A DNA stretch of 64,000 bases from Spirochaetia bacterium (GCA_963677925.2 CAXXYH010000003.1:64001-128000); one strand, 5' to 3'; counted from the stretch's first letter, positions 42,410-62,642 are shown. Notes: generated by a model not told the origin, from the letters alone. Made by a program: numbers and translations.

Positions 42410-42496
42410 GCTTATACCCAACTTACCCTGCACATAAAATAAAAATGTGGCAAAGCCTGGAGCCCGAATGGGCGGAACATATAACCCCTGTTATAT
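42410..42496 (-). repeat. Right half of split family-B att site
   Basis: aaaataaaaatgtggc...catataacccct gttatat matches the right half of 61740-61830. Confidence 0.8.
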
Positions 42497-43057
42497 AAAG
42501 TACTTGGGCCACCTAATTAAAAACCCTAAATACATGGATGTATTTAGGGCAGTATTGATTTTGGTTTTATATTTCAATATCTGTAATACGAATAAATAAA
42601 TTACTAATTCTATCAATAATTTTTCAAACACTTCATGATTATCAATTACTTCTATCATAGTCTTTAAACCAGTTTTGTTTTTATCTTTCATTCTTAAATA
42701 TTTGATATAACTTCCATGGTATTCAACTATCTCATAATATGAATGAACATATTTATTTCTATCTTCTTCAACTCTTTTTAATTCTTTCTTCAGTTCTGAA
42801 AATTCGTCAATCACAATACTTTTAACATTATTCTGATACATTATTGATTCAATAATATTTATGATTTTATAGAAACTAATCTCGGAGGCTATAATTCTTG
42901 CATATTCAACATTCCCCAATAATTGCCCCAACAATTCAACAAGTGCATGTTCCAATTCTTGAAAGGAAAAAATAATTAATCCTAATGTACTTGTCGGATC
43001 ATTCATGAATAAATTATTATTTGCATTTTCCATCCAATCGGGTATTTTTGAATCCAT
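42491..43057 (-). CDS. Cassette: hypothetical protein, HEPN-like RNKYVH
   Basis: FQELE...RNKYVH; stop lies in the family-B core. Confidence 0.6.
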   Translation of the reverse strand: MDSKIPDWMENANNNLFMNDPTSTLGLIIFSFQELEHALVELLGQLLGNVEYARIIASEISFYKIINIIESIMYQNNVKSIVIDEFSELKKELKRVEEDRNKYVHSYYEIVEYHGSYIKYLRMKDKNKTGLKTMIEVIDNHEVFEKLLIELVIYLFVLQILKYKTKINTALNTSMYLGFLIRWPKYFI

Positions 43058-43091
43058 TTCATCCTCTATCTAAGATTTAAGTTTTAACTTG

Positions 43092-43445
43092 TCAAACAAA
43101 TTGAACTAATATTATCACACCTTCTGCCCATTCATATTTCTCAATTATGCGTTGAACTATTTTTGTAACAAACTCTATATAATTGTTTTTGGCACTATAA
43201 GATATTGGATTTTCTCCATTAGCAGTAGTCAATGTAACAATTAATTTATTAACTCCTTCTTCATTTAATAGGGCAACTCTAAAAGCTATTCTAGTTGCCC
43301 ATGCATCAGTTTCAATTTTTATATTTTTAAAAGCTTCATATTCTAACCATTCTTTTCTACTGATATCATATGGTAGAGTTAAATCATAAGAGAATAATGG
43401 TATAGTTAAAGCAAAAAGCATAATACTGAAGATTAATTTTTTCAT
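43092..43445 (-). CDS. Cassette: secreted hypothetical protein
   Basis: Signal peptide; SD. Confidence 0.7.
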   Translation of the reverse strand: MKKLIFSIMLFALTIPLFSYDLTLPYDISRKEWLEYEAFKNIKIETDAWATRIAFRVALLNEEGVNKLIVTLTTANGENPISYSAKNNYIEFVTKIVQRIIEKYEWAEGVIILVQFV

Positions 43446-43530
43446 TCTTACTCCTAACTTCTAATTCAATCTTTTATGTTCAACACGAGCCAGGACGGCG
43501 AGTGCCAAATCTCCGCTGCCCAAGTATTTT

Positions 43531-43628
43531 ATATAACGTCCCGGGGTTATATGACGTTTTTATTTTTCTTAATTTTACCACCACTTACCCGTATTTACCA
43601 ATCATAAACTATTGGCCCATGTCTGTGC
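43531..43628 (-). repeat. Left half of split family-B att site plus linker
   Basis: atataac gtcccggggttatatgacgtttttatttt. Confidence 0.8.
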
Positions 43629-43772
43629 ATTTAACGACGAAATAAGTTGCGCCCTCGATCCTGAGCCGCAGGCGAAGGAATTGGCGCGGTTTCTGAGTGA
43701 GGGCCATTGCCCGAACGTCTTTAGCAGAAACCGTGACAATAGACGGCGACAACTTCATTTCATTTGTTATGT
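43629..43772 (-). repeat. attC family A
   Basis: atttaac...gttatgt. Confidence 0.9.
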
Positions 43773-43775
43773 GTT

Positions 43776-44792
43776 TCATTCCCTCATCTCAGGTGCAAAT
43801 CGATAAGAATATACTATTTCTTCTACTGAATTATTATAAAGTATTTCATTATCAACTAAATTATATAATTGTCTTAGTAATTTTTGATATTCTTCATTAT
43901 CATTTATCTGGCTCATTACAGTGTAATGTTCTAAAAAGAATGGTAAGAATGAAATAGTAGTAATTTCGTTTACTTCTTTATAAAATTCATTTGTATCAGT
44001 ATTATTATACAATCCTAAATACTTCTCAAAATTTTCATATTGAATTGTCAAATACTCTAATATTTCTATTTCTCCATTGATCAACTTATCCAAATTCATT
44101 TTACCACTGATAACCACATCTCTATCAATTCCTAAAAAATAATTTGAGAAAGAGGCTAAATAATTATCTTTATAATCTACACTTAAAAACCATTCAAATC
44201 TGGTAACCTTATATCCTTTTTCAATAAATGCATGATTAATATATCTGCTTTGAAAATAATATGAATCAAGAATATACAAATATTCTTCTAATTTGTTTGC
44301 AGAAATATATTCGAACCTTTTATTATTCATATAATCATATATAACTTTGAATTCTCGTACCACTGAAGATATTACTAATGTTAATAAGTCTTCTTTTTCA
44401 AGATAATATCTACTTAGATACAATGTTAAATTCTCATTTTCATCAGTTGATACGAGTGCGACATGGGTTATATCTTCATCTGTATTAGTCTTTATTTCAA
44501 ATACTCCATTTTCAATCATTTCTGCAATATCTTTAGCGATTGCCCCATAATCGATCATTTCATCTTCAATATTTTGCATATCATCTAAAATATGATCTAT
44601 CAATTCATATGTCCCAGGCCCTGCTTCTCGTGAATCTGTGTCAGGTAATAAATCATTTAAATCTGAATAATTAATATTCCATTCTTCTTCCATTCCGGAT
44701 ATATACCCAGTTCTTGCACTGAAATCAATTGTTTCAGCATAAATGATTACTGTACTGCAAAAAAATAGAAGTATTAGACTAATCTTTTTCAT
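43776..44792 (-). CDS. Cassette: secreted hypothetical protein
   Basis: Signal peptide. Confidence 0.7.
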   Translation of the reverse strand: MKKISLILLFFCSTVIIYAETIDFSARTGYISGMEEEWNINYSDLNDLLPDTDSREAGPGTYELIDHILDDMQNIEDEMIDYGAIAKDIAEMIENGVFEIKTNTDEDITHVALVSTDENENLTLYLSRYYLEKEDLLTLVISSVVREFKVIYDYMNNKRFEYISANKLEEYLYILDSYYFQSRYINHAFIEKGYKVTRFEWFLSVDYKDNYLASFSNYFLGIDRDVVISGKMNLDKLINGEIEILEYLTIQYENFEKYLGLYNNTDTNEFYKEVNEITTISFLPFFLEHYTVMSQINDNEEYQKLLRQLYNLVDNEILYNNSVEEIVYSYRFAPEMRE

Positions 44793-44842
44793 TAAATTTC
44801 CTCTTTAAATTATTTTATCACTAAATCGTAAATCTTAAATAC

Positions 44843-44986
44843 ACATAACGACGAAATAAGTTGCGCCCTCGATCCTGAGCGTAGCGAAGGAATTGGCGTG
44901 ATTCTGGAGTGGAGCGCGATCAGCGCGGAACGTCTCCGCCAGAATCATGACAATAGACGGCGACAACTTCATTTCATTTGTTAAAT
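44843..44986 (-). repeat. attC family A
   Basis: acataac...gttaaat. Confidence 0.9.
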
Positions 44987-45147
44987 GCCGATAATATCGA
45001 CTCATTTCAGAAAAATAAAAATGAGCTGAAGGCCAAGCTCAATTATAACAATGCTTATATTCTCCAAGAATGTACAAGTTTCTGATTACTTTTAATAATA
45101 TCGCCAAAAGTACACGGATGTACTTTTGAAACTGTATTCTAATATAT

Positions 45148-45912
45148 TTACAAATCTTCTCCAGTTTTATTTTTATATGCAGCAAACAAATAGTTACATA
45201 TAGATTTTGTAGAATCAATTGTCAGTCTTGCATGATGTTCTTTAAGTTTATAATATTTCCCCTTAGATTTTCCATGTGAATCCGAATGTTGATTTCTTAT
45301 CTCACTAATTCCTTGTACTATTGAAAAAAATCCAGATAGAATTTTCTTAAAATATTCTTCTTTATAATCTATTGGATCTAAGTGAAGAAAATTAGAAACT
45401 TTCTTATACAGTTTTATTAGATCATCATTACTACTAATTTCTATAGACTGCTTTTCAAGTATTGTTTTTAATAATGTTTCAAGTAATGTTCGAGAATTTG
45501 TTACTGCACCGTCAAAATCTTTATCCATTAATTTACGATCAATTTTTTCTATCTGTTCTATAGCGTAATCAAAGCTAATTTTCTCTATATGGTTTTCAAT
45601 TTTGATATTATCTACAGGAATTTTCATTGTTGGATCTATAAAAGATTCAATCCAACAAAGATCAATAGAATTTTCTTCAACTGGATATAAAATATGGAAA
45701 GCATCCAAGATTATTTCATTATCATCATGAGAAAGTTCTTGTAACTTTTCATAAGTTACAATATCAGAGTATAATTTTAGTCCAGTACGATATGAATTAA
45801 AGGCTCGACCAAAGCTACTTGATTCAATAAACTCATATGAACATTTTTTAAGTAAAATTGCTAAATCATTCCTTTTTTTATAAATCAAATATTCTAAAAT
45901 TCTATCTTCCAT
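45148..45912 (-). CDS. Cassette: abortive-infection C-terminal (Abi_C) family protein
   Basis: GAVTNSRTLLE...IRNQHSDSHG. Confidence 0.8.
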   Translation of the reverse strand: MEDRILEYLIYKKRNDLAILLKKCSYEFIESSSFGRAFNSYRTGLKLYSDIVTYEKLQELSHDDNEIILDAFHILYPVEENSIDLCWIESFIDPTMKIPVDNIKIENHIEKISFDYAIEQIEKIDRKLMDKDFDGAVTNSRTLLETLLKTILEKQSIEISSNDDLIKLYKKVSNFLHLDPIDYKEEYFKKILSGFFSIVQGISEIRNQHSDSHGKSKGKYYKLKEHHARLTIDSTKSICNYLFAAYKNKTGEDL

Positions 45913-46054
45913 TCTTCCTCTTTATAGCGAGCCAAGGACGGCGAGCAAAAAACCAACTAAAATCAGAAATTGTACATAGATTATGTGACGTTTTATTTTT
46001 CTTATTGTATTCTATCACACTCATCATTTTCCCAAAACTGTTATTTTTTCGTGC

Positions 46055-46194
46055 ATTTAACGACAATTTGAGCTGCCTGGCGGCGCGAGTCTTCGAGCGC
46101 ATTGGCGTGATTCTGGAACGTAGCGCGATCAGCGCGAAGTGTCTCTGCCAGAATCATGACAATAGCCAGGACTGCTCCAAATTTTTTGTTAAAT
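46055..46194 (-). repeat. attC family A
   Basis: atttaac...gttaaat. Confidence 0.9.
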
Positions 46195-47355
46195 GCCGTT
46201 TTCCATCAAGTCTAAAGTTTCATCTGCTTCTTCAATCCATCTATTTATTATCGCTTTATTCTCATTCTTTTTTTCTTGATTTTTTGTATAGGATTCATTC
46301 AAGTCTTTTTGATGTTTATAATATTCACCGAGTTTTGATATTAAATCGCGTCCTTTCTCATTAATTTTCTTATCTTTAATTATCTTGGTTAGTTCTCTTT
46401 CCATTTCTTCAACAGAATATCCTGTCGTTTTCTTAAAATCTCTTATTACCCATTGTTTTTCAAATATATTTCGTTTCAACCAGCCGTCATATTGTTCTTT
46501 ATATGTTCCATAGATCTTTTCTATTTTGTTTTCCAGTTCTTTATCTATTGCTCTTTTATTTTCTTCTTTTTCACTAATTTTTATTTTCTCATCAAGTAAT
46601 ACCTGTATTGAGCCTACTTCCTTTCCATTATATTTCTCCGGCACTAATAATGATAATGCAACCCCTAAACCTGCTTCTTCTTTGGTTAATTCATGACTTT
46701 TATTTATTTCATCAAATTCTTTTTGACTTATTCCCATATATCCTGCAATTTGTTCTGTTGATTCTTTTGTCGTCATAGTTTTTACATACCCCGGCCCAAC
46801 ACAATAAGTATTTATCTTTAATCTTTCTAATTCCATTGATAAAGTATTACATAATTCAATCTGTGCTGTTTTTAATATCTCATAACATCCCATATATGGG
46901 ACTGCACCTGATGACGGCATAAAAACTATAGTTCCACTATTCTTTTCTTTCATATATGGTAAAAATGCTTTTATTAGTAATACTGGACCCTTTAAATTTA
47001 CATTATAGCTTAAATCCCATTCTTCCGGTTCAATTTCTTCAAGTTTTCCAATCTTTACTATTGTTGCATTATTTATTATCACATCTATTCTTTTATATTT
47101 ATTAAAAATAAGTTTTTTAACTTTTTCAATTTCATTGATATCACCAATATCGCATTCTATTATCTTTAAATTTCCTAATTCCTTTTTCTCACGAGTGTAA
47201 TTTTCTATTTTATTCTTGTCATTTTCTAATATTACTACATTTGCTCCAAATTTTTCACAATTCCTCGCAATTTCCATGCCTATATCACCACAGCCTCCAG
47301 TAATTAAAATGACTTTTCCTTTTAACCTATCGTAGTCTTTAATTTCTTTTTCCAT
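46189..47355 (-). CDS. Cassette: SDR family oxidoreductase
   Basis: TGGCGDIG, IDVIINNA, YEILK. Confidence 0.85.
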   Translation of the reverse strand: MEKEIKDYDRLKGKVILITGGCGDIGMEIARNCEKFGANVVILENDKNKIENYTREKKELGNLKIIECDIGDINEIEKVKKLIFNKYKRIDVIINNATIVKIGKLEEIEPEEWDLSYNVNLKGPVLLIKAFLPYMKEKNSGTIVFMPSSGAVPYMGCYEILKTAQIELCNTLSMELERLKINTYCVGPGYVKTMTTKESTEQIAGYMGISQKEFDEINKSHELTKEEAGLGVALSLLVPEKYNGKEVGSIQVLLDEKIKISEKEENKRAIDKELENKIEKIYGTYKEQYDGWLKRNIFEKQWVIRDFKKTTGYSVEEMERELTKIIKDKKINEKGRDLISKLGEYYKHQKDLNESYTKNQEKKNENKAIINRWIEEADETLDLMENGI

Positions 47356-47414
47356 ATTCTTCTCATCATAATTGTATTATTGATAATAACAAATGTATAT
47401 CATAAATTCCGTGC

Positions 47415-47547
47415 ATTTAACGACGAAATAAGTAGCGAAACTGTCCCGAGTCTTCGAGGGTTGGAGCGGTTCTGGAACGAGCGATCAGCGAGTGTCTCCG
47501 CCAGAACCGTGTCAAAAGTTTTGACTACTTCATTTCATTTGTTAAAT
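47415..47547 (-). repeat. attC family A
   Basis: atttaac...gttaaat. Confidence 0.9.
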
Positions 47548-47587
47548 GCTTTTCTTTATCAGACCGCACGACGGAGTCAAGGTCTGA

Positions 47588-48469
47588 TTATATATTACTC
47601 TTAATAATGATTGTGGTACCAACTCCACCTTCTTTATAAATATTTCCTAAATTTTCTTTAAAATATTCTATTCCTACATCTCCAGTGCTATGCATAGGAT
47701 ATAAACATCTTAAAGGTATCTCCTGAAATTTCTTCTTTGTATATACCAATAATCTTTCATTTGCTTGATGTAATTGTAAGCCTCCAATAATAAAACTTAT
47801 ATTATTATCACTCTTTTTTATGATATGATTTATTGTATTCACTATTCCTGAATGACAACATCCACATATTACAATTTTACTATTATCTTCAAGTTCAATA
47901 ACTAATGAAATATCATCATCCAATTGATCCTGTTCTTCAATTCCATTCTCTCTTTTTATTACTTTTTTTAACATTGGATTTAAAATCTCATAATCATTTT
48001 TTCTTGGGATTTCTCCTGTTATCCAAATATTATCAGTTATTCTATATTCATCTTTTCTCTTAATTATTCTGCCACTTTGTTCAATTCTTTCTATTTCTTT
48101 AGTATCTTGTATCCCAACATTTTTTTCAGTACCATCTTCCAATATTAATATTTTTTCTATTAACGTATCAGGATGGCAAACAACTCTAACATAGTCATTT
48201 GAATTCGTAAAAGCATATGATAATCCACCGGTATGATCAAAATGTCCATGACTTAAAACTATATAATCAATATCGCTTATATCTAACTTTAATTTTTGTA
48301 GATTTATTTTCAATCTTTCATTTTCTGGGCCAGTATCAAATAGTATTTTTATAATAGTTCCATCATCTAATTCATTCTCAACTAATGCTGAAAATCCTCC
48401 AGGAGCATATTCGTCTCCAACAATTGATTTATTATCAACTATTACCGTGATTTTAACCTGTTTTACCAT
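47588..48469 (-). CDS. Cassette: MBL-fold metallo-hydrolase
   Basis: LFDTG, SHGHFDHTGG, CGCCHSG. Confidence 0.88.
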   Translation of the reverse strand: MVKQVKITVIVDNKSIVGDEYAPGGFSALVENELDDGTIIKILFDTGPENERLKINLQKLKLDISDIDYIVLSHGHFDHTGGLSYAFTNSNDYVRVVCHPDTLIEKILILEDGTEKNVGIQDTKEIERIEQSGRIIKRKDEYRITDNIWITGEIPRKNDYEILNPMLKKVIKRENGIEEQDQLDDDISLVIELEDNSKIVICGCCHSGIVNTINHIIKKSDNNISFIIGGLQLHQANERLLVYTKKKFQEIPLRCLYPMHSTGDVGIEYFKENLGNIYKEGGVGTTIIIKSNI

Positions 48470-48619
48470 TTACAATATTTCCCTTATCTATTATCGAGAG
48501 TATAAACACTGATACAATCCTATAGCCCGTCGGCCGGAGGTCCGGGCTATTTCTTCATTCTTATACTAAACCCAATATACAAAATCGACTAACATTTTTA
48601 TGATTTATACTTTAAGTGC

Positions 48620-48756
48620 ATTTAACGACCAAATAAGTAGCGAAACCGGCTGAGGTCTTCCGAAGCTTGGCGCGGTTTCTGAGCGAGGAGCATTCGACGA
48701 GCGTCTCCGCAGAAACCGTGTCAAAGGTTTTGACTACTTCATTTGATTTGTTATCA
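48620..48756 (-). repeat. attC family A
   Basis: atttaac...gttatca. Confidence 0.9.
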
Positions 48757-48783
48757 AGAGCAATTTTCTTCATTTCTCGAATT

Positions 48784-49221
48784 CTATTTTTCCCATTCCA
48801 TTATGAATTCTATTTCTCCAGTATCTTTATCTATTGAGTCTGATATTATTTCAAATTTTTTATTCCTATAGAATCTTATACTTTTCTCATTCTTTTTATA
48901 TACTCTTAATTCTATTCTTTCTCGTTTTTCTTTTACGAAGTTTAATAATTGACTACCAATCCCCATACCTTGTATTTCTGTTAGTACAAAAATTGCTGCA
49001 AGATATTCATTTATCATTGATACGAACCCCAAAAGCTTTTTATCATTTTGGGCGATATAGGTTTCTGACTTTGGGATATATTCTTCTTTCATCATTGATT
49101 TATTCCTTTCCCAATATTCATCTGAAATAAAACTATGAGTTTCTATTGATACCTTATACCAAAGTTCAACAATATCATCTATATCTTCATGACTTGCTTT
49201 CGTTATCCTTACATTTTCCAA
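48784..49221 (-). CDS. Cassette: GNAT acetyltransferase (YjaB-like)
   Basis: THSFI, QGMGIGSQLL, NEKSIRFY. Confidence 0.88.
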   Translation of the reverse strand: MENVRITKASHEDIDDIVELWYKVSIETHSFISDEYWERNKSMMKEEYIPKSETYIAQNDKKLLGFVSMINEYLAAIFVLTEIQGMGIGSQLLNFVKEKRERIELRVYKKNEKSIRFYRNKKFEIISDSIDKDTGEIEFIMEWEK

Positions 49222-49342
49222 TAATTTACCTTTTAATATCGACGCAGTCTCTATTCCCAGCCCTAATGTTCGCTTCCACTGGGGTTTTTACTTTCAGTTC
49301 CGCTTCCATTGGGATTTTTCTTAATTATCTCTTTCCTTTTCT

Positions 49343-49588
49343 TTATGATACCTTCCACTTAATATCCAATTTAAGATGTTTTCTAGCGCAATCTGCCAAA
49401 TACAAATTGATCAATTGCTGATATTTTATTCCAGATTCCTCTGACATATCCTTAAAATAATCTATTGTATCTTCATCTAAGCGGATAGTTATCTGTTTCT
49501 TTAATTTCGATACATACGGATTCTTTTTTGCATTTGAAAAATCATAATGTTCTCTCATAATTTCATCCTCCATATTCCCTTGTTTCAT
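49343..49588 (-). CDS. brnA: BrnA-like antitoxin (true start probably MREHYDF)
   Basis: KKQITIRLD...YFK...YQQLINLYL. Confidence 0.85.
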   Translation of the reverse strand: MKQGNMEDEIMREHYDFSNAKKNPYVSKLKKQITIRLDEDTIDYFKDMSEESGIKYQQLINLYLADCARKHLKLDIKWKVS

Positions 49589-49847
49589 CCTTATCAGCTT
49601 TCCTTGCTGATATAATCCTTATTATTTCGTCATTTTCCCTATAACAATGACACACCACCAATACTTTTAAAGTTTGTGATAATCCCATAATCAAGAATCT
49701 TTCTTCATCTTCAGAATGATCCGGATCATGTATTATTAAAGCAGCTGGATCATAGAACACTGTTTTTGCTTCATCAAAGCTTACCTTATGTTTCTTTTTA
49801 TTGATATTATTCTTATTTTCATCCCATTCGAACTGGATATTTTTCAT
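49563..49847 (-). CDS. brnT: BrnT family toxin
   Basis: FEWDENKN..N..KH.VSF, IRIISARKA; start placed at MKNIQ behind the promoter. Confidence 0.88.
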   Translation of the reverse strand: MKNIQFEWDENKNNINKKKHKVSFDEAKTVFYDPAALIIHDPDHSEDEERFLIMGLSQTLKVLVVCHCYRENDEIIRIISARKADKDETREYGG

Positions 49848-49853
49848 ACTTAT

Positions 49854-49882
49854 AATGTACATACATTGTAGTGTTTTGTCAA
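49854..49882 (-). promoter_or_regulatory. sigma70-like promoter of brnTA (leaderless)
   Basis: TTGACA-17-TACATT, ATG 6 nt downstream. Confidence 0.7.
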
Positions 49883-50032
49883 TTTTTATATTTCATAATA
49901 ATCCCAGCCCTAACGCTCGCTTCCACTGGGGTTCTCTCACCGTTTCGCTTCCGCTGGCAGCTGAATTTCGTTCCCATATGGGTTTAAACTACAACAATTA
50001 TTTCATCAAATTTACACTGCGTTATTGGTTCT

Positions 50033-50178
50033 TGATAACGACGAAATAAGTTGCGCCCTCGATCCTGAGCCGAAGGCGAAGGAATTGGCGTGATTCTGGA
50101 GTGGAGCGCGATCAGCGTGGAACGTCTCCGCCAGAATCATGACAATAGACGGCGACAACTTCATTTCATTTGTTATAC
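50033..50178 (-). repeat. attC family A
   Basis: tgataac...gttatac. Confidence 0.9.
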
Positions 50179-50185
50179 GGATTTT

Positions 50186-50476
50186 CTATACTTTTTCCAA
50201 TAATTTCCCAGATACATATTTATGCAATATCATTGAAACCAGGGTTTGATATGGTAATCCTTCTTCCATTGCTTTTATCTTCAAATTCTTCAAATCTCTT
50301 TCTGATATTCTTATATTCATCCTTTTATCTTTTTTCATCGTAGCTTCAGCATATTTTTTTGCTTGAAGCCTATATTCTTCATTTTCTTCTATTTCTTCCC
50401 ATTCACCTTTCTCAAGTGAATTTATTAAATCGCGTTCTTCTTCATCTATCGGAGTAAACATATTTTCCTCTTTCAT
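50186..50476 (-). CDS. Cassette: CopG/RHH-type antitoxin
   Basis: KDKRMNIRISERDL..K.KA.EEGLPYQTL. Confidence 0.85.
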   Translation of the reverse strand: MKEENMFTPIDEEERDLINSLEKGEWEEIEENEEYRLQAKKYAEATMKKDKRMNIRISERDLKNLKIKAMEEGLPYQTLVSMILHKYVSGKLLEKV

Positions 50477-50760
50477 TCCTTTCCTCCATTCTTCAATAAT
50501 TTCTTCGTATATTCCCTACTCGGGTATATTGTCTTTAGAAATATCTCTTCACCTTCTTTATTTTCAACAAAAGGCACTATATATATATAATCATTATAGT
50601 TGATTAGATAAATTTTCTGATTTCCATATTTTTCTTCATTTGGATGCCTTAAGACTTTTACAACTTTTCCTTCAGAAATACACAATATAATTTCTTCAAA
50701 TGACATGTTTCGTTGTTCCTTCAGTATTTCATTCTTTTCATCATTCCAATTATATGTCAT
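50473..50760 (-). CDS. Cassette: BrnT-like toxin
   Basis: YNWNDEKN..LK..R..SFEEI, FLKTIYPSR. Confidence 0.85.
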   Translation of the reverse strand: MTYNWNDEKNEILKEQRNMSFEEIILCISEGKVVKVLRHPNEEKYGNQKIYLINYNDYIYIVPFVENKEGEEIFLKTIYPSREYTKKLLKNGGKE

Positions 50761-50766
50761 ATTATA

Positions 50767-50795
50767 AAGATAAGCTCACGTGTGCCTTTTGTCAA
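50767..50795 (-). promoter_or_regulatory. sigma70-like promoter of the TA cassette (leaderless)
   Basis: TTGACA-17-TATCTT, ATG 6 nt downstream. Confidence 0.65.
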
Positions 50796-53909: not shown

Positions 53910-53988
53910 GCCTTATTATCCAGACCGTACGGCGGAGCCAGGTCTGGATTTCTTCATTATTATTTTTTTGATATTAATAAAGTTTTTA

Positions 53989-55152: not shown

Positions 55153-55294
55153 CCCTTCGTCATAATTTTTTAATAAGAGTTAATTACTCCCCACAATCGC
55201 CCGTCGGCCGGAGGTCCGGGCGATTTCTTATTCCTTATATTACCCCCTAAAACGATTATCAGCTAATATTTTTATTATTACATTCTCTAAGTGC

Positions 55295-55434
55295 ATTTAA
55301 CGACGTTTTGAGCTGCCTGGCGGCGCGAGTCTTCGCGCGCATTGGCGTGATTCTGGAGTGCAGCGCGATCAGCGCGGAACGTCTATGCCAGAATCATGAC
55401 AATAGCCAGGACTGCTCCAAAACTTTTGTTAAAT
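55295..55434 (-). repeat. attC family A
   Basis: atttaac...gttaaat. Confidence 0.9.
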
Positions 55435-55520
55435 GCTATACCCAAACAACCCAATCCATAAAATAAAAATGTGGCGCAGCCCGAAGCCCGAATGGGCTGA
55501 GCATATAGCCCCTGTTATAG
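55435..55520 (-). repeat. Right half of split family-B att site
   Basis: aaaataaaaatgtggcgcagccc...catatagcccct gttatag. Confidence 0.8.
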
Positions 55521-55619
55521 GAAGTATTTTGGCTCTTGAGTCAGACCGTACATCGGAGATAGGGCTGGCCTCTTAAACATACAACTTTCAACTTTAACAG
55601 TATCCTAAAACAAACTTTG

Positions 55620-56747
55620 TCAATTAAAAGCATACTTCACTAAAGCTATTTCATTCTCACTATCACTACCTTTTTCAAATAAAAATAAGTTATCTCCAGT
55701 TTGAAGTTTTCTTACAACTTCGATGTCTTTCAAATCCTCATCAATAGTCCCAATCCATCTTGGACTATTTAACTCTCTTATATCATAAACAAAATAATTC
55801 CCGATTAAAATATTATTAAAATCAAAATCTAAATCAAAATAACTAAACAAGTTTATTTCATCTGTTGAATTACATTTTTGTAGAAATTCATATTTTTTTT
55901 CACTATCTAATTTTATTATGCTCCAAAAATACTCTTCTGAATTTAAACCTCTTGCTCCATCACTTACTATAATATCATTATATATATTAAATCCATTGTC
56001 CTCTAAACTGATAGAATTTATATCGACCAATTCATAATTATTAGAAATATTAGTAATATCATAAACAATCATTTGATTTGTTATTGTAAAAGGATTACCA
56101 TCTTTATCAACTTTAAGCTCACTTGAAAAAGTGTATAAATAATTTGAATTTAAGTAAATTTCTTTATCAATTACTCCTTCGAAAGAATCTAAATAATGTC
56201 TTTCAATTTCTAGCATATTATCAGCATCCAAAATTAATAATAGTTTATAGTATGAAAATGAATTAGAATCTAAAATATAAATTTTATTATCCATACATCT
56301 TAAACTTAAATAATAGGTAGTGTTTAAATTATAGGTATTATTTTCACTAATAGAATATTTAAAAGATGGATTTGTTATATCCTCAATCAAATATACCAGA
56401 CAATCCGTTGACCCTAGAAGATACAAATAATTTTCATAAATATACAATTGTTTAAAATCAGGAACAATATCATTATAATAATTTGAATTATCAACCCAAG
56501 GGATGGTGGAAACTTCAATCAATCCTTCCAAATCTATCAAGTGCACCATCCCATCAGTACTATAATATACTAAAACTTTAGAAGTCTCAGATATAAACGC
56601 AGAGAATGAATCTGCTTTTTCATCTAAAATAAGTTTTGTATCTTTAGAAAATATTTGATTGAAATGGTATCCATTTTGATAATATGGAAAAAAGTTTTTA
56701 CATGAGGTTATTCCTAATAATAATAAAAATAATAAAATCCTTTTCAA
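55620..56747 (-). CDS. Cassette: lipoprotein, probable beta-propeller
   Basis: Lipobox-like LLGITSC; repeated YDI-type strands. Confidence 0.7.
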   Translation of the reverse strand: MKRILLFLLLLGITSCKNFFPYYQNGYHFNQIFSKDTKLILDEKADSFSAFISETSKVLVYYSTDGMVHLIDLEGLIEVSTIPWVDNSNYYNDIVPDFKQLYIYENYLYLLGSTDCLVYLIEDITNPSFKYSISENNTYNLNTTYYLSLRCMDNKIYILDSNSFSYYKLLLILDADNMLEIERHYLDSFEGVIDKEIYLNSNYLYTFSSELKVDKDGNPFTITNQMIVYDITNISNNYELVDINSISLEDNGFNIYNDIIVSDGARGLNSEEYFWSIIKLDSEKKYEFLQKCNSTDEINLFSYFDLDFDFNNILIGNYFVYDIRELNSPRWIGTIDEDLKDIEVVRKLQTGDNLFLFEKGSDSENEIALVKYAFN

Positions 56748-56860
56748 TACGTTTCATTCCTTATATATTGACATAATATATCAATTTTAAATTTTATTCT
56801 TTTTTTCTTATTGCCCGTCGGCCGGAGGTCCGGGCGTCTTTCTCTTAGCCAAAATATTTC

Positions 56861-56954
56861 CTATAACGTCCCGGGGTTATATGACGTTTTTATTTTTTAA
56901 TTTTACCACCAATTACCCGTATTTACCATTTCAAACTGTTTTACCATGTTGTGC
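56861..56954 (-). repeat. Left half of split family-B att site plus linker
   Basis: ctataac gtcccggggttatatgacgtttttatttt. Confidence 0.8.
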
Positions 56955-57092
56955 ATTTAACGACGATTTGAGTAGCAAAATCGGCCGAGTCTTCGAGGCT
57001 TGGCGCAGTTCTGGAACGTAGCGCGATCAGCGCGGAGTGTCTCTGCCAGAACTGTGACAAAGATTTTGACTACTCCAAATCTTTTGTTATAT
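56955..57092 (-). repeat. attC family A
   Basis: atttaac...gttatat. Confidence 0.9.
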
Positions 57093-57106
57093 GGGATTTC
57101 CATTAT

Positions 57107-57601
57107 TTATGGATAAAAATTATGTTCTGGGTCTACAAATACGACATAAAAAGTATTCTTATCAAATGCTTTTCCAGTTTTACAATGGATTTTCCCATTA
57201 TATTCATCTGGAACTACAAAACCAATAAGCCTTTTATCATATTCTAAACGGAATCTACCCCATAGTACTTGATGTGGAATATATGAAGGATGTTTTAATT
57301 TTGAATGCTTTGGAAATGCACCATAATTTACATAAATACTGTTTCGGTGCTTCCCACTTCCAATTTTCATATTTTCCCAATGCTCTAAATTTTCTCTACT
57401 ATACTCAATTAATTTCTTAAATATTTTATTACTATCATCCTTCTGCATATTCTTTATATCTTCACATAAAGACTGAGAGCTATCAAAATAGCTGAAATTA
57501 AATTTCATTCTATTGGATAGAGTATCGGTTTCAGAATCAAGACTAGCTTGTGGAAAAGAATTAATAAACGAATCTTTTTTACTATTCTGAAAATTTTTCA
57601 T
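57107..57601 (-). CDS. Cassette: hypothetical protein, partner of the ATPase (RelE-like fold possible)
   Basis: RFRL...RLIGF...FYVVFVDPEH; ATGA overlap. Confidence 0.65.
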   Translation of the reverse strand: MKNFQNSKKDSFINSFPQASLDSETDTLSNRMKFNFSYFDSSQSLCEDIKNMQKDDSNKIFKKLIEYSRENLEHWENMKIGSGKHRNSIYVNYGAFPKHSKLKHPSYIPHQVLWGRFRLEYDKRLIGFVVPDEYNGKIHCKTGKAFDKNTFYVVFVDPEHNFYP

Positions 57602-58734
57602 ATTTTAGGGACTCCCCCTAATTTACCACTAAAATAAATATTTGAAATTTGTCGATCATTCCTTACAATATCGCCAGGTAGCTCATCTAATCTATAAGCA
57701 AAACTACAATTTTTTTCTTTATTTACCAGAATTGTTTTGTATTTCCCAAGTTCGTCCATTATTTTATTATTATGTGTTGTAAAAATTAATTGAGCATCCT
57801 TTTGATTTGCTTCTTCATCAAATAACTTAATTAGTTTTGGTAAAATTAATGGATGGAGATTTATATCAAATTCATCCAGAACTAAAACTCCTCCCACATC
57901 CAAAATTGCTTTATATAAAAATAAAGTTGAATACAATGCTTTAGTTCCACTTGATTCATAATGTATTGTTAATGCTTCGACTCTATCCTCTAAATCATGA
58001 TAAAAAATAGGAAAATAACTTTTATCACCATTATCTAAATCGCGATCGAATATTTTTATATCATTAATTCCTACATCACATTTTTTTATTTGTTCAATTG
58101 CAAAAGTAAAAGCTTTTTCATTTTGTAAATATAATTCTGAGATCTTACTAATATCAGGGTTGAATCCATGATAACCAAAATTATTTACATTAGTTACAAT
58201 GTTTTTAAAAAATGAATACACATTATTGATTGATTTGAAATCATATTGATGTGCAGTACTTATAAACGAGGCATTATTTCTTAACTTCATCATTTTGATT
58301 TCATCATAATCTTTATTCGTGTATATAATTTCATTATATTTTCTTTCTACTATTTTAGTATTTCTTTTAATTTTCTTATATAAGACTTCTGAAATAACGT
58401 TTTGTTGTGTTGTCTCTAGCTCGTATCTATACTCGATATCATCAATCTTGAAAACAATATAAAAATCGGTTGGGTCCTTACTTTCAAAAAATGATTCTAA
58501 CATTATTTCATCGTCAGGTTTCATTCGAAATGAATCAATACAAAAATTCCTTATGAAATCTATAGTTTTTAATATATTTGTTTTTCCACTTGCGTTTCCA
58601 CCTTTTACACATATTACATTTGTAAATTCCTTTCCATGAGATATGCTTTCTGGACAATTATTATTCAAACGCAATGAAGCTTCAAAACCTTCTTTAAAAG
58701 AAAAGTAATTCCTAGCACCAAATTCTAATAACAT
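57598..58734 (-). CDS. Cassette: AAA_21/AbiEii-type ATPase
   Basis: GGNASGKT, ESSGT, LDEFDINLHP, QLIFTTH. Confidence 0.88.
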   Translation of the reverse strand: MLLEFGARNYFSFKEGFEASLRLNNNCPESISHGKEFTNVICVKGGNASGKTNILKTIDFIRNFCIDSFRMKPDDEIMLESFFESKDPTDFYIVFKIDDIEYRYELETTQQNVISEVLYKKIKRNTKIVERKYNEIIYTNKDYDEIKMMKLRNNASFISTAHQYDFKSINNVYSFFKNIVTNVNNFGYHGFNPDISKISELYLQNEKAFTFAIEQIKKCDVGINDIKIFDRDLDNGDKSYFPIFYHDLEDRVEALTIHYESSGTKALYSTLFLYKAILDVGGVLVLDEFDINLHPLILPKLIKLFDEEANQKDAQLIFTTHNNKIMDELGKYKTILVNKEKNCSFAYRLDELPGDIVRNDRQISNIYFSGKLGGVPKI

Positions 58735-58850
58735 ATCGATCTCCTATAGGATTCTACTAATAATATCGTCTAAATCCTTAAAAAGTCAACTCTTATTAGC
58801 TTTTTTTGTCATTTTTGACTAATTATGCCTGTTATAATCCAATATTCTCC

Positions 58851-58991
58851 ATATAACGACGATTTGAGTAGCGAAACCGTGCCGAGTCTTCGAGGCTTGG
58901 CGCGATTCTGGAGTGGAGGCACGATCAGTGCCGCAACGTCCCTGCCAGAACCGTGACAATGGTTTTGACTACTCCAAAACTTTTGTTATAC
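58851..58991 (-). repeat. attC family A
   Basis: atataac...gttatac. Confidence 0.9.
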
Positions 58992-59001
58992 ATTTTTTAT
59001 T

Positions 59002-59856
59002 TCAATCATGTTTTTCTATTTCTTTTTGTTCTTTTGAATAAATAGTTTTAGCCATTCCTTTAACCATAGTTTCAGAAATAAAAATAATTTGTCCTTTTTT
59101 ATTTTTATAATAATCAGAGGATAATCTTTTATAATAACCTCTACGAAAGTGAGGGGACACAACTTTACCAGAAGAAGAGTTATTGACAGGTTCTACTATT
59201 TTATCGGCAATTTCTAATATGAAAGATTTTTCCTTTATTTCCTCCTTAATATAAGGAGGAACTCCTTCCTTAACACATTCAGGAAATGCTTCCATATATG
59301 CAATAGTGTTAATTGCAAGTCGAAAGATTCGGCAAATTTCATTGGAATTTCGTGAATCTTCCTTTAATAATTCTTTATAATTTTTCTCTGAGCACCAGGC
59401 ACCTCCTTTGCCTATAGCCCAATATAGAATAATTTGATTCTGTTCATTATTCATTAATCCAAATGCATAACCCTTATACTTATTTTCATATGGAATATGT
59501 AATCCAAATGGAAAAATACGTAATTTTAAATTACCTTGTTCTTCAATCATTCCATTCTCATTAATATATTTTCCAATACCTTCGAGATCTGCTAATTGAA
59601 TATTTTCAAGAAAATTTCTTAAGTTTTTATCAATGAAGTATAGGTGTAACATTTTATTAATAGCATCTGTATACCATAAATCCCACGTAAACTTTTTTAA
59701 TTGCTGCTTTTGCCAAGATTGAAAAGGATTATTCATTATTTGTTGATTAATGCGTATTAAAAACTGTTCAATTGTATCTTTATTATTTTTGTAATTTTCT
59801 AAGTAGTTATCCCATTGAGTCGCTAAAGGTTTACTATACCAAGGTTTCTTTCCCAT
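59002..59856 (-). CDS. Cassette: hypothetical protein with C-terminal PHFRRGY motif
   Basis: ORF; SPHFRRGY...FISETMV. Confidence 0.7.
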   Translation of the reverse strand: MGKKPWYSKPLATQWDNYLENYKNNKDTIEQFLIRINQQIMNNPFQSWQKQQLKKFTWDLWYTDAINKMLHLYFIDKNLRNFLENIQLADLEGIGKYINENGMIEEQGNLKLRIFPFGLHIPYENKYKGYAFGLMNNEQNQIILYWAIGKGGAWCSEKNYKELLKEDSRNSNEICRIFRLAINTIAYMEAFPECVKEGVPPYIKEEIKEKSFILEIADKIVEPVNNSSSGKVVSPHFRRGYYKRLSSDYYKNKKGQIIFISETMVKGMAKTIYSKEQKEIEKHD

Positions 59857-59859
59857 ATT

Positions 59860-60246
59860 CTAAAATAGTGGCATTATAAATTGTTCATCTTTATTAAAAG
59901 ACCACTGAACTTGCCACGTTGAACCTGTAATTTGATCTAAAAGGATAAAATTCCACATATTACTAGTATAATATAGTGTAAATCTTCCATCTATCTTTTT
60001 TTTATTTTCTGCCAGATTCTTATCATTTAAAATTACTCCACCTCTTTCATTATCTTCTACAGAATATTGTAAAATCCACATTTTTCCCGTAGCAGTCTCT
60101 AGTTCAATAAATGTCCAAATATTTTGTGTTTTAAAGAGTCGATAAGGAGCATTAGGATCTTGAGTTGATTCTATAACCTGAGTTTGTGCTATTAATCCTG
60201 TAGATATAATAAAAAAGACAACTAAAAATATCATAACTTTCTTCAT
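59860..60246 (-). CDS. Cassette: secreted hypothetical protein with internal duplication
   Basis: Signal peptide MKKVMIF; repeated T.N.W.FI.L...TG..W unit; GGAGG SD. Confidence 0.75.
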   Translation of the reverse strand: MKKVMIFLVVFFIISTGLIAQTQVIESTQDPNAPYRLFKTQNIWTFIELETATGKMWILQYSVEDNERGGVILNDKNLAENKKKIDGRFTLYYTSNMWNFILLDQITGSTWQVQWSFNKDEQFIMPLF

Positions 60247-60283
60247 AATATCCTCCAAAACTATTTAACCCTTCTTAGAATAT

Positions 60284-60419
60284 GTATAACGACGATTTGA
60301 GTAGCAAAATTGATCCGCGTCTTCGCGGAATTGGCGCGATTCTGGAGTGAGCGATCAGCGAACGTCTTTAGCCAGAATCGTGACAATAAATTTTGACTAC
60401 TCCAAATCTCTTGTTAAAT
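60284..60419 (-). repeat. attC family A
   Basis: gtataac...gttaaat. Confidence 0.9.
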
Positions 60420-60508
60420 GCTTTTGCCCAACTTACCCAATTCATAAAATAAAAATGTGGCGTAGCCCAAGGAGCGCTTAGCGACGAAGCAAATAACCCC
60501 TGTTATAC
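60420..60508 (-). repeat. Right half of split family-B att site
   Basis: aaaataaaaatgtggcgtagccc...aataacccct gttatac. Confidence 0.8.
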
Positions 60509-60603
60509 GCTTTGAGCTTGACATACAGACCGTTCAACGGAGTTAGGTCTGGATTCTTTATCTAATATAGTAAAATTTTTATCGGAATAATTAATATTAT
60601 ACT

Positions 60604-61638
60604 CTAATCAACCCAAGCAGGTACTTCAGGAGCAAAATCTATTTTATTAGTTACTAACCGATATGCTAATGCCTCTCCTTCATGTTTTATATCAATAGAT
60701 GTTATTTCACATTTGAAAATATGTTGATATTTCTCAGTTAGAACTTCATACGCTTGTTGATTCAGGAGAGTATTAGAAGCTTCTGTATTTGACATTCGAC
60801 AAGCATATACTACAGGGACTCCAACAACAGTGTACTCATTATTTATGATATTCAACGAAACCTCTCCATAATCAATCCCAATGCCTAATCCTATATTATT
60901 TAAAATAACGTTAAAACATGATTTTGATTGATCATAAACTTTATTAAATTCTTCATGACATTCAATTGAACTTTTTAAAGCATAAAACAGAGCATCTTTT
61001 CCTGAATAAAAATCAGGAAAAAATGCAAGAATCCCATCGCCAGTAAATTTATCAAATATACCATAATTTTTTTGTATTATTTTAATTATTCCTTTTATTA
61101 GCTCATTTATAAATTCAGAGAATTTATCTGGGGTTCTTGACTTTAACATTAATTCTGTAGATCTTCTAATATCCAATGAAAACACAACAGCATTTGATTT
61201 TCTCACTTCCTCAAATTGCTTTCTAAATTTTTCATCATTTAGTAATTTGGTTTGAGCTGCTTCATTAATCCTATGATAAATGTATCTTAATTTATATTTA
61301 TTCTGAAGTTCTTCGAATTTATCCTTTAGCACTTTTGTTTCATCTCTTGGATTTTTATTAAAAGTACCAAGTTTTTTTGCCATATCTGCTATTTCATCAA
61401 AAGTGCTAAAATAGTTTTCAAATTTTATGGATTTTAATGTTTCGTCTAATTGATCCAACACATCAAAAGCTATTGATTTAATATTTCTATCAGAAAAATC
61501 TTTTAGAGCCTCAGCTAATTCTTTTATTTTTTCTTCTTCTAAATAACTTTTTGTTAAAATAGCATCTACTTTTGAAATATTATTTTTAGATTCTCTTAAT
61601 GCTTTTCCTGACTCTTCTTTTGCATCATCAAAATTCAA
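60604..61638 (-). CDS. Cassette: class III adenylate/guanylate-type nucleotide cyclase
   Basis: SLDIRRST, DKFTGDG, IGIDYG, GVPVVYACRM. Confidence 0.85.
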   Translation of the reverse strand: MNFDDAKEESGKALRESKNNISKVDAILTKSYLEEEKIKELAEALKDFSDRNIKSIAFDVLDQLDETLKSIKFENYFSTFDEIADMAKKLGTFNKNPRDETKVLKDKFEELQNKYKLRYIYHRINEAAQTKLLNDEKFRKQFEEVRKSNAVVFSLDIRRSTELMLKSRTPDKFSEFINELIKGIIKIIQKNYGIFDKFTGDGILAFFPDFYSGKDALFYALKSSIECHEEFNKVYDQSKSCFNVILNNIGLGIGIDYGEVSLNIINNEYTVVGVPVVYACRMSNTEASNTLLNQQAYEVLTEKYQHIFKCEITSIDIKHEGEALAYRLVTNKIDFAPEVPAWVD

Positions 61639-61739
61639 TATTACACCTCCAACTTTTTTATATCTAAAAATAAAAACTAAATATTAACTCGCCCGTCGGC
61701 CGGAGGTCCGGGCGTCTTATTCTTGTCAAGCTCATTGCG

Positions 61740-61830
61740 TAATAACGTTCCGGGGTTATGTGACGTACGGCGAAGCCGTATGTGGCGCAGCCCGAGGAGC
61801 GTAGTGACGAGCGAATAACCCTTGTTAGAC
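61740..61830 (-). repeat. Intact family-B attC-like site
   Basis: taataac gttccggggttat gtgacgtacggcGAAgccgtatgtggc...ataaccctt gttagac. Confidence 0.8.
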
Positions 61831-61879
61831 GATGTCACGAACCTTCTTCAAAGCCAAGCAACATGGATGTTGTTTGGCT

Positions 61880-62209
61880 TTAATCTATTAACATTTCCTG
61901 TAGCACATTCTTGACGAGATCTACTTCTTTTCTATTTATTTTACCAATCTTTTTAATTAATCTCTTCCTATCAACAGTTCTTAATTGATCTAAAACAATC
62001 CATCCATCTTTATTTTGAAACTTAACAGCTACACGAGTAGGATATGTATGTGATTTTGTTGTCATTGGAGCGATAATAATAGTCTGGATTGTTTCATTCA
62101 TTTCATTTGGTGAAATCACTAAACAAGGTCTTGTCTTTTTTATTTCATGGCCAACTGTTGGATCTAAGTTTATTAAATATACCTCATATTGATGAATTAC
62201 CATTCCCAT
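61880..62209 (-). CDS. mazF: PemK/MazF toxin
   Basis: NLDPTVGHEIKKTRPCLVIS, APMTT, DQLRTVD. Confidence 0.9.
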   Translation of the reverse strand: MGMVIHQYEVYLINLDPTVGHEIKKTRPCLVISPNEMNETIQTIIIAPMTTKSHTYPTRVAVKFQNKDGWIVLDQLRTVDRKRLIKKIGKINRKEVDLVKNVLQEMLID

Positions 62210-62445
62210 TCAAAATCACCCTGTTCAGTCAAATTGTCTAAAAGTAATGAATCATCCCCATTTTGATGCATCTTCATAAACTCTTCGGACCATCCTTCCC
62301 TTGGCTTTTTCTTTATTGGTCTAATCAGTATTTCTGTATTATGCACTTCTAATTCAACTTTTTCTTCAATATTTAACTGTTGCAAAATGCTCTTCGGAAT
62401 TCGTATTCCTTTTGAATTGCCTATAGGAACCACTGAAACTAACAT
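62197..62445 (-). CDS. mazE: AbrB/MazE antitoxin
   Basis: IGNSKGIRIPK; start MLVSV behind GAGG SD. Confidence 0.88.
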   Translation of the reverse strand: MLVSVVPIGNSKGIRIPKSILQQLNIEEKVELEVHNTEILIRPIKKKPREGWSEEFMKMHQNGDDSLLLDNLTEQGDFEWEW

Positions 62446-62460
62446 AATACACCTCTTTAT

Positions 62461-62493
62461 TGTAATTATATAGTAATTACATAAATTTGTCAA
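62461..62493 (-). promoter_or_regulatory. Consensus promoter with overlapping operator palindrome for mazEF
   Basis: TTGACA-17-TATAAT; tgtaattatatagtaattaca inverted repeat. Confidence 0.8.
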
Positions 62494-62546
62494 TCTTTGC
62501 TTGCCAAGGATGGCAAGCATCCTCTTTCTCTTAGGTTCGTGATTTC

Positions 62547-62642
62547 GTCTAACGCCCCGGGGTTATATGACGTTTTTATTTTTCTCAATTTTACCACCAA
62601 TTACCCGTATTTACCATTTCAAACTGTTTTACCATGTTGTGC
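62547..62642 (-). repeat. Left half of split family-B att site plus linker
   Basis: gtctaac gccccggggttatatgacgtttttatttt. Confidence 0.8.

Follow-up and report, generated by a model that had tools for sequence, protein, structure and literature searches.

The 64,000-nt stretch of a Spirochaetia bacterium genome analyzed here (G000:C3:64001-128000, hereafter the window, with coordinates counted from its start) holds a classical integron cassette array in which some cassettes end in a second kind of recombination site, B. We think it probable that B is an attC-like hairpin site, distinct from ordinary attC, whose folded bottom strand is likely the substrate of a second recombinase. The ordinary sites of the array (family A) comprise 31 copies of a 130-185-nt repeat punctuating minus-strand gene cassettes from ~19470 to the right end of the window; they are canonical attC sites served by the IntI integrase of the genome. 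The candidate enzyme for B, labeled IntB in this report, is a tyrosine recombinase encoded on contig C4 of the same genome immediately upstream of an array of B sites.

Fold and closing stem of the B site

B sites are bounded by the boxes R'' (xxxTAAC) and R' (GTTAxxx), and TAAC...GTTA is invariant in all 24 aligned sites. We scored 24 distinct B sites from 5 genomes against a fold that consists of an R stem, a one-sided bulge, an 11-bp L stem and a first tip hairpin. Pairing was found in 89.8% of the cells and 14 of the 30 pairs change on both sides, values that none of 500 shuffles reached, and pairing fell to 32-46% when the partners were slid. Compensatory changes affect 6 of the 11 pairs of the L stem, in which 97.7% of cells pair, and 5 of the 9 pairs of the first tip hairpin, in which 90.2% do. 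These changes couple arms (L'' and L') that lie 60-300 nt apart. The G.T wobbles in the R, L and first-hairpin stems are also unevenly distributed between strands, 71 on the bottom vs. 2 on the top, and three pairs are almost always G.T on the bottom strand. Furthermore, isolated sites fold better as bottom than as top strands in three of three cases (-19.9 vs. -13.6, -15.6 vs. -10.8 and -20.2 vs. -15.7 kcal/mol), an advantage of 4.5-6.3 kcal/mol (z-scores of -2.1 to -3.3 vs. -0.55 to -0.74). The long-range compensatory changes and the bottom-strand G.T bias support the single-strand reading put forward in the original prediction, and the bottom strand, as the better-folding one, is presumably the strand that is recombined.

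The predicted bottom-strand fold runs from the R stem through a one-sided bulge of 4-5 nt right 3' of AAC to the 11-bp L stem and a branched tip. An asymmetric spacer had been noted from the window alone, and we recovered it: on the plus strand GTCCC, GTTCC or GCCCC stands opposite a single T, for a predicted one-sided bulge of 4 nt. Nor is there a bulged base in the GGGGTTAT/ATAACCCC L stem, as had also been claimed. The two arms of this stem (GGGG(T/C)TATGTG / CACATAACCCC) are equal in length and deviate from Watson-Crick pairing only by G.T wobble; where GGGGCTAT occurs, in one window copy and most of the C4 copies, the top strand has a C.A mismatch and the bottom strand a G.T wobble. The two-sided central bubble of canonical attC sites is absent from B, which has 5 nt (GTCCC) on the R'-L' side vs. 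1 nt (T) on the other. If AGGGG and CCCCGGGAC are instead taken for the spacers, GGGG:CCCC is zipped and most of the spacer is paired. With no bulged base in the L stem and a 5-vs.-1-nt spacer, the fold appears non-canonical, as originally proposed. B does retain the G that follows AAC and, next to R', a 5-nt spacer. The tip is variable, ranging from a 15-nt hairpin to ~110 nt and consisting in some sites of an entire nested A attC, which extends the site to ~310 nt. Separately, we observed a variant B site (L009:9636-9812, at G000:C4:1147636-1147812) with a tip of ~110 nt and a compensatory L stem in which GCGG...CCGC replaces GGGG...CCCC.

The ends of B cassettes are complementary as well. 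We aligned the first 32 nt of each cassette (from the G of R') to the reverse complement of its last 32 nt (to the C of R''), anchored and end to end, with scores of +1/-1/-2. The original prediction had quoted four complementary end pairs of ~20 bp. All four exist and lie exactly at cassette boundaries, and the first of them (42490-42509 / 43518-43537) has no match expected by chance (100 shuffles). The four B cassettes of the window score 16-19, with stems of 20-23 nt, vs. scores of 4-14 (median 10) and 9-10 bp of perfect pairing in 36 A cassettes of the same array (Mann-Whitney p = 0.0005, with some of the cassettes sharing descent). When ends of different cassettes are paired, the median is 5, the few high values coming from duplicated cassettes. 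Past position 12, the score exceeds 3 in 0 of 36 A cassettes, whereas it is 8-10 in 12 of 16 B cassettes (the set comprised 4 window and 12 C4 cassettes). None of the 36 A cassettes carries a terminal complementarity as long as that of B, which had been named as an observation that would refute the original prediction. Similarly long stems were found outside the window, with scores of at least 15 in 9 of 12 intervals delimited by regular expression on C4, 7 of 16 in genome G002, 1 of 1 in G008 and 2 of 5 in G010, where a further interval scores 12.

The central mismatch described in each of the four pairs proved to be a positional feature. Counting from the G of GTT, position 11 departs from Watson-Crick pairing in 21 of the 22 distinct long stems compared across 4 genomes. 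Fifteen read A.C on top and T.G on the bottom strand, six read A.A on top and T.T on the bottom, and the 5' arm has a conserved A there. Long stems with this feature recur in G002, G008 and G010. The stems differ in sequence from unit to unit, as the original prediction stated, and are cassette-specific; their mismatches are strand-biased, with 18 top A.C vs. 1 top G.T. One related family of stems (GAGCCCGACA, GAGCCTGACA, GAGCCCAACA, GAGCTTGACA, AAGCCCGACA) includes four variants with the same change on both arms.

The effect of these stems is predicted to depend on whether the cassette is free. In the array a B site is flanked by the ends of two different cassettes, of which only TAAC/GTTA pair. 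An excised circle would bring the cassette's own ends together and lengthen the R stem from ~5-6 bp to ~21 bp. Using a script to join the ends of each cassette around its B site, we obtained predicted minimum free energies for the bottom strand of -33.0 to -40.6 kcal/mol in the circle and -21.1 to -30.3 kcal/mol in the array, a predicted gain of ~10-17 kcal/mol in 5 of 5 cassettes. The bottom strand of the circle also outperformed the top strand by ~5-8 kcal/mol in all five. Such a site, poorly folded within the array but stably folded once its cassette is free, would favor capture over repeated excision, and the closing stem may have been selected for as an element that strengthens the site only in the free cassette. 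More speculatively, the stem base and the position-11 wobble could be read by the extra N-terminal domain of IntB; the stem would span about two helical turns and place the fixed wobble one turn from the cut.

The end complementarity could instead be a relic of how cassettes are made, by insertion into a palindrome or by snap-back synthesis, with no present role. The stems are indeed cassette-specific and nearly perfect, as expected of a recent inverted duplication, and some related cassettes share them by descent. Related stems, however, change on both arms, as in the four variants above, and the non-Watson-Crick position 11 with its conserved A on the 5' arm argues for selection on a defined geometry. 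Long stems also persist across genera whose recombinases are only 53-58% identical, and their mismatches are strand-biased. We therefore regard a relic as an unlikely source of the closing stems.

Linked recombinase, composite sites and mobility of B cassettes

Motif searches of the genome identified the B site ten or more times in C4:1141730-1154604. A B covariance model, run with 150 first-look candidates scored per genome, returned 17 matches in the source genome: 16 in C4:1140789-1160257 and one full match in the window, where it also gave two partial matches at half-sites. The same model found no match at E <= 10 among the 31 A sites of the window, and an A profile (nhmmer) matches A sites only, never B, which upholds the original separation of B from the ordinary attC sites of the array. 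The C4 array (C4:1139117 to ~1160257), with its 16 B-model matches and four composite sites, has the organization of an integron, in that promoter-poor cassettes, each ending in a site, abut a recombinase gene. This gene (C4:1138043-1139116) encodes IntB, a Xer-like tyrosine recombinase of 357 aa with a SAM-like domain (PF13495) and a catalytic domain (PF00589), and the B array starts straight after its stop codon. IntB passes the NF040815 model (232.5 vs. 220 bits) and falls short of the integron-integrase model TIGR02249 (194.2 vs. 265 bits). The sole protein of the genome above the TIGR02249 cut-off is IntI (382.9 bits), encoded 0.5 kb to the right of the window (G000:C3:128526-129455, plus strand) and divergent from the cassettes, so that the window array is accompanied by an integrase of the IntI family with the additional domain. 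The two recombinases are 30% identical, and their alignment has gaps of 31 and 8 residues that we read as the place of the IntI additional domain, which would have no counterpart in IntB.

Six other genomes of the same order also gave B-model matches. A search for a linked tyrosine recombinase, as suggested with the original prediction, showed that B arrays adjoin an IntB orthologue in all 5 genomes with usable contigs (Table 1); the orthologues in G002, G005, G008 and G010 share 52-96% identity. From these sequence comparisons we infer that IntB is the enzyme that recombines B sites. Some further features stand apart from these arrays. In G005, a relative whose genome is 100% complete, the IntI match (C45:6889-7828) is broken into two overlapping parts, at model positions 2-204 and 198-315, each in an open frame of its own, which suggests that this IntI is frameshifted; the IntB orthologue of the genome is intact. 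In G010, three weak B-model matches of ~147 nt (C1:3906578-3919105) lie well away from IntB (3.51 Mb) as well as from IntI (4.53 Mb) and may represent a third site cluster. In G002, one divergent B-like hairpin (L028/L029, C6:939583-939671) lies inside a classical A-site array, in the orientation opposite to the cassettes.

B could still be a divergent attC subfamily handled by IntI, with the C4 array having no integrase of its own and the Xer-like gene beside it being unrelated. B keeps the AAC/GTT boxes, the GTT crossover, the G after AAC and the 5-nt R'-side spacer of an ordinary attC; IntI and IntB occur together in most genomes of the family; and B cassettes are located inside the IntI array. 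The distribution of the sites speaks for a different arrangement. All unit junctions in the IntI array are A sites, with B sites confined to three A-delimited units, whereas no junction of the C4 array is A-only and all four of its nested A sites are intact, a pattern that fits one enzyme per site type. B arrays are, moreover, directly downstream of the IntB orthologue in the five genomes just described. The structure of the site points the same way, as B lacks flipped-out bases and has most of its central spacer paired; with IntI1, removing the flipped-out bases and pairing the spacer lowered recombination 8.5e4-fold (Bouvier 2009, PMC2727003). Handling of B by IntI is for these reasons quite unlikely.

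Four C4 composite sites show how the two site types are combined. Each runs from B R''-L'' and a tip arm through a complete A attC to a second tip arm and B L'-R', over ~310 nt. In the window, the B cassettes are inside A-delimited units (43635-42403, 56961-55428 and 62649-60413) ordered as composite 3' half, B cassette or cassettes, composite 5' half and A attC. Of the four apparent B sites in the window, one (61740-61830) stands as a complete site, and each of the other three turned out to be the two halves of a composite B site, apparently split by recombination at the A attC nested in it. The window halves have 84% and 93% mean column identity to the halves of the intact C4 composites. For example, the 3' half upstream of cassette 1 (43538..43634) begins directly after the G of the preceding A attC's R' and is 93% identical, as mean column identity, to the 3' halves of the four C4 composites, while the 5' half at 42404..42489 runs into the nested A attC and gave a partial B-model match at 42432-42476. 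The nested site at 42274..42409 is the one that joins cassette 1 to the array. The corresponding half of the cassette 2 composite gave a weak full-length match at 55417-55520.

Two cassettes are shared between the arrays. Cassette 2 and its composite (window 55300-56891) are 98.4% identical over 1592 nt to C4:1147787-1149377, where the cassette is joined via the R' of B; in the window it is joined via the R' of the inner A site. Cassette 4 and its B site are 99.76% identical over 832 nt to C4:1152049-1152880, and the neighbors differ beyond GTTAT, with TACGC in the window vs. CCGAA on C4 downstream of the site and spacers GGGGC vs. GGGAC upstream. The complete B site of the window reads, on the minus strand, R'' GTCTAAC, A, L'' AGGGTTAT, branched tip, L' ATAACCCC, GGAAC and R' GTTATTA, and is identical to C4:1152792-1152882. 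Because the same cassette and site have different neighbors in the two arrays, the crossover can be placed within C|GTTA. B thus carries the R''/R' AAC...GTT boxes and the GTT crossover of a canonical attC, and the mobile B unit extends from TTA... through the ORFs (open reading frames), R'' and the site to the final G.

The window B cassettes are likely passengers captured into the IntI array through a nested A attC. Circles that had been excised at B sites would be opened by IntI at the inner A attC and built into its own array, and opening at this inner site would leave B half-sites on either side of the window cassettes. The unit at 62649-60413 could have been a two-cassette circle made of cassette 4, a plain B site, cassette 3 and a composite site. 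When the IntI array of the sister genome G002 was searched for a B passenger, we found only the divergent, reversed B-like hairpin mentioned above and no clear B half-sites.

B could also be a duplex core of the Xer/dif kind (ATAAC - 8 bp - GTTAT) with an incidental hairpin potential. An ATAAC-N8-GTTAT core-like sequence is present in the B site, IntB has its best scores on models of the Xer type and no IntI insertion, and ATAACCCC-GGGAC-GTTAT can be read as two inverted arms around an 8-bp spacer. On the other side, compensatory changes join L'' and L' across 60-300 nt, cassette ends ~1 kb apart are complementary, and a duplex site would give no reason for the 71 vs. 2 strand bias of the G.T wobbles. 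These features argue that the hairpin matters, and we consider a duplex core with merely incidental folding highly improbable. It is scarcely credible that the B units represent insertions, into the array, of small elements bounded by terminal inverted repeats (TIRs), of the miniature inverted-repeat transposable element (MITE) or insertion sequence (IS) kind: repeats of ~20 bp do surround units of 0.7-1.4 kb, but the units have no transposase and no flanking target-site duplication, their boundaries are GTT crossover points within a conserved hairpin site, the same unit stands head-to-tail with others in a 20-kb array with one site between each, and B signatures occur only in two arrays with repeat sequences that vary by unit.

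Several observations weigh against reading B as a hairpin site of a second recombinase. The B sites share 85% column identity within a genome and many cassettes are kin, so that the counts overstate the number of independent events. A second tip hairpin, as drawn, is poorly supported, since only 54.9% of it pairs and its pairs are better on the top strand. Long closing stems are also missing from some intervals: low scores were obtained for 3 of 12 C4 intervals, each of which includes another site or has a falsely placed boundary, and for 2 of 5 in G010, scores of 11-12 for 5 of 16 and below 10 for 4 of 16 in G002, and scores of at least 15 for 0 of 2 in G005. No B-model match was found among the 150 candidates scored in each of G001, G003 and G004, whose IntB homologues are 38-45% identical, and an archaeal locus (L012) with a 39%-identical recombinase has no repeat array at the locus. 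Presence and absence cannot separate the two enzymes, since a majority of the family's genomes encode the pair (IntI is above its cut-off in 8 of 11). The match of the IntB N-terminus to the HARP family is below the Pfam cut-off (22.3 vs. 25 bits). Finally, we infer rather than observe the cutting of B sites by IntB, the use of a single strand and the roles of the closing stem and the HARP-like domain.

Features of the window array

The features of the window and the B arrays of the other genomes are listed in Table 1.

Table 1. B cassettes, B sites and associated features. Window coordinates are given unless a genome is named.
Feature	Location	Strand	Details
Classical integron cassette array	19472..64000	minus	31 A-type attC sites
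Nested canonical A attC of cassette 1 composite site	42274..42409	minus	nhmmer E = 8e-41
5' half of cassette 1 composite B site	42404..42489	minus	1-nt spacer, L'' GGGGTTAT, tip arm
B cassette 1	42490..43537	minus	ORFs 43092-43445 and 42491-43057, no known family
B cassette 1 closing arms	43518-43537 (5'), 42490-42509 (3')	minus	20-nt stem, score 18, single A.C mismatch at position 11
3' half of split composite B site, upstream of cassette 1	43538..43634	minus	tip arm, L' ATAACCCC, 5-nt spacer GGGAC
Cassette 2 composite 5' half (55429-55513) and nested A attC (55301-55434)	55301..55513	minus	
B cassette 2	55514..56867	minus	one 375-aa ORF (55620-56747), no Pfam family
B cassette 2 closing arms	56847-56867, 55514-55534	minus	21-nt stem, score 19
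3' half of split composite B site, upstream of cassette 2	56868..56960	minus	alignment to C4 composite halves
Composite 5' half (60414-60501) and nested A attC (60290-60419)	60290..60501	minus	closes two-cassette carrier 62649-60413
B cassette 3	60502..61746	minus	one 344-aa ORF (60604-61638), no Pfam family
B cassette 3 closing arms	61724-61746, 60502-60523	minus	stem of 22-23 nt, one-base bulge, two A.A mismatches, score 16
Only complete B site in window, between cassettes 4 and 3	61740..61830	minus	B model 81.3 bits, E = 6.5e-20
B cassette 4	61824..62553	minus	mazE-like (62197-62520) and mazF-like (61880-62209) toxin-antitoxin pair
B cassette 4 closing arms	62533-62553, 61824-61844	minus	21-nt stem, score 17
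3' half of split composite B site, upstream of cassette 4	62554..62648	minus	alignment to C4 composite halves
B-model matches in G002	C9:455966-486616		IntB orthologue 487083-488153
B-model matches in G010	C1:3512689-3529949		IntB orthologue 3511207-3512256
B-model matches in G005	C10:175485-185520		IntB orthologue 186301-187353
B-model matches in G008	C15:322812-330161		IntB orthologue 319846-320904

The domain matches of cassette 4 are to a MazE-like antitoxin (E = 5e-9) and a PemK/MazF-like toxin (E = 1e-32). Cassettes run from high to low coordinates with the site at their 3' end, a direction that follows from a duplicated cassette carrying its A site on the left side. The duplicated segment (52603-52902 and 62800-63099; 300 nt, 99% identical) has a near-identical A site left of both copies. 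On the minus strand, an A site reads xxxTAAC-AAGAG-ATTTG[G]AGTAG ... CTACTCAAAT-CGTC-GTTAxxx, in which the spacer is two-sided and the L'' arm is longer than its partner by one base (ATTTG[G]AGTAG vs. CTACTCAAAT). Its bottom strand, which is the plus strand of the window, folds better than the top (-27.2 vs. -20.4 and -33.6 vs. -26.7 kcal/mol). An Rfam scan of the window at gathering thresholds returned no matches, despite the 31 attC sites there. An ORF at 19611-20693 was initially taken as the integrase and then ruled out, as it has no Pfam match and the true IntI is to the right of the window.

Four copies of a longer A-site variant (38030-38124, 37415-37512, 35723-35815 and 34317-34416) have ~60-90 extra nt in the 3' arm, which puts R' ~185 nt from R'', and the profile matches only the first ~100 positions of them. 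Eight further A sites are found at G000:C3:51622-60512, beyond a ~22-kb non-cassette block that fills window positions 1-19470. The 'cassette' spanning this block has non-matching ends (score 4), which fits an island inserted into the A array. Some A cassettes encode defense-like proteins, among them an AAA_13 ATPase (20912-23302, E = 3e-46), a protein with an Mrr_cat restriction endonuclease domain (41371-42147) and an AAA_21/AbiEii-like ATPase (57598-58734, E = 2e-39).

Two small elements recur within the cassettes. Terminator-like hairpins stand just upstream of the 3' closing arm (42517-42546, 60530-60560 and 61850-61880) and at many cassette 3' ends, in two recurring forms: CCAGACC...GGTCTGG and stems around the conserved loop ACATCCATGT. 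An AAGAG direct repeat located outside the stems is confined to part of the cassettes and was discarded as a general feature. A conserved GC-rich element of 21 nt, CCCGGACCTCCGGCCGACGGG, is present in seven minus-strand copies in the window (28988-29008, 40516-40536, 42174-42194, 48526-48546, 55200-55220, 56814-56834 and 61692-61712) vs. none expected by chance. In A and B cassettes alike it precedes the first start codon by ~15-25 nt, and C4 cassettes have it as well; it includes an anti-Shine-Dalgarno-like ACCTCC and may be a common 5' leader or regulatory hairpin of the cassettes.

Relation to known integrons and Xer systems

Much of B is shared with canonical attC sites, which IntI recombines as folded bottom strands (Vibrio VCRs, class 1 cassette attCs and family A). 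Both have AAC/GTT R boxes, a G|TT crossover and a G after AAC; both are located at the 3' end of the cassette, whose first bases pair with its own R''; and both form two-stem hairpins with a variable tip and a better-folding bottom strand, in head-to-tail arrays. The differences concern the fold, the pairing of cassette ends and the linked recombinase. Extrahelical bases, an unpaired central spacer and a variable terminal structure are described as common to all known attC sites, with the extrahelical bases acting as the main strand selector (Bouvier 2009, PMC2727003). By contrast, the L stem of B is 11 bp without flipped-out bases, and its spacer is a one-sided bulge of 4-5 nt in place of the two-sided bubble. 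Pairing between the ends of a B cassette covers ~21 bp, in which position 11 is a fixed wobble or mismatch, compared with 9-10 bp in A cassettes, and the linked recombinase lacks the IntI insertion. In our fold model B is attC-like, yet it fails two of the three structural hallmarks (flipped-out bases and two-sided spacer), and the enzyme linked to it fails the IntI test.

Sedentary chromosomal integrons of the Treponema denticola type have a co-oriented integrase that is classed as IntI. They resemble the C4 system in their spirochaete host, in the shared orientation of recombinase and cassettes and in an array that starts right after the recombinase gene. They differ from it in the recombinase, as the C4 enzyme is without the insertion and reaches 194 of the 265 bits required by the integron-integrase model. 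At the protein level, relatives of IntI that lack the insertion are already known: in the sections that treat the 'integron-like' recombinase subgroup, the IntI insertion is described as not fully conserved, yet is called essential for integron function, and those sections tie no cassette array or site type to the insertion-less proteins (Smyshlyaev et al. 2021, PMC8138268).

Xer systems offer a second comparison. The dif-type sites are 28-bp duplexes that are not known to have long-range intrastrand pairing, and the pdif modules of Acinetobacter plasmids, which depend on XerC/D, are short modules bounded by repeated sites. The B arrays share with XerC/D-dif and pdif a Xer-type recombinase and short units between repeated sites. 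Unlike dif, B shows pairing, covariation and strand bias, all of which point to hairpins. In a full-text literature search we found no description of such a second cassette system, nor 'HARP domain' together with 'tyrosine recombinase'.

As a tentative and somewhat doubtful extension, the B sites, IntB and their cassettes could constitute a second class of integron, in which IntB lacks the IntI helix, carries a fork-binding HARP-like domain and recombines bulged bottom-strand hairpins, the ~21-bp closing stem, formed only in the excised circle, marks the free cassette for capture, and bilingual cassettes with a nested attC move between the two systems. Integron recombination is thought to need the IntI-specific insertion, which reads the flipped-out bases of attC. 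The B system has neither the insertion nor the flipped-out bases, yet it appears to bear the marks of active recombination between single-stranded hairpins. It shares the genome with a classical integron, and cassettes pass between the two; a mazEF pair, for instance, is 99.8% identical in both. If this reading is correct, the IntI insertion would not be the sole route to hairpin recombination, and a site that is weak in the array and strong in the circle would be a simple answer to how capture is favored over loss. Surveys that require IntI would then undercount cassette platforms.

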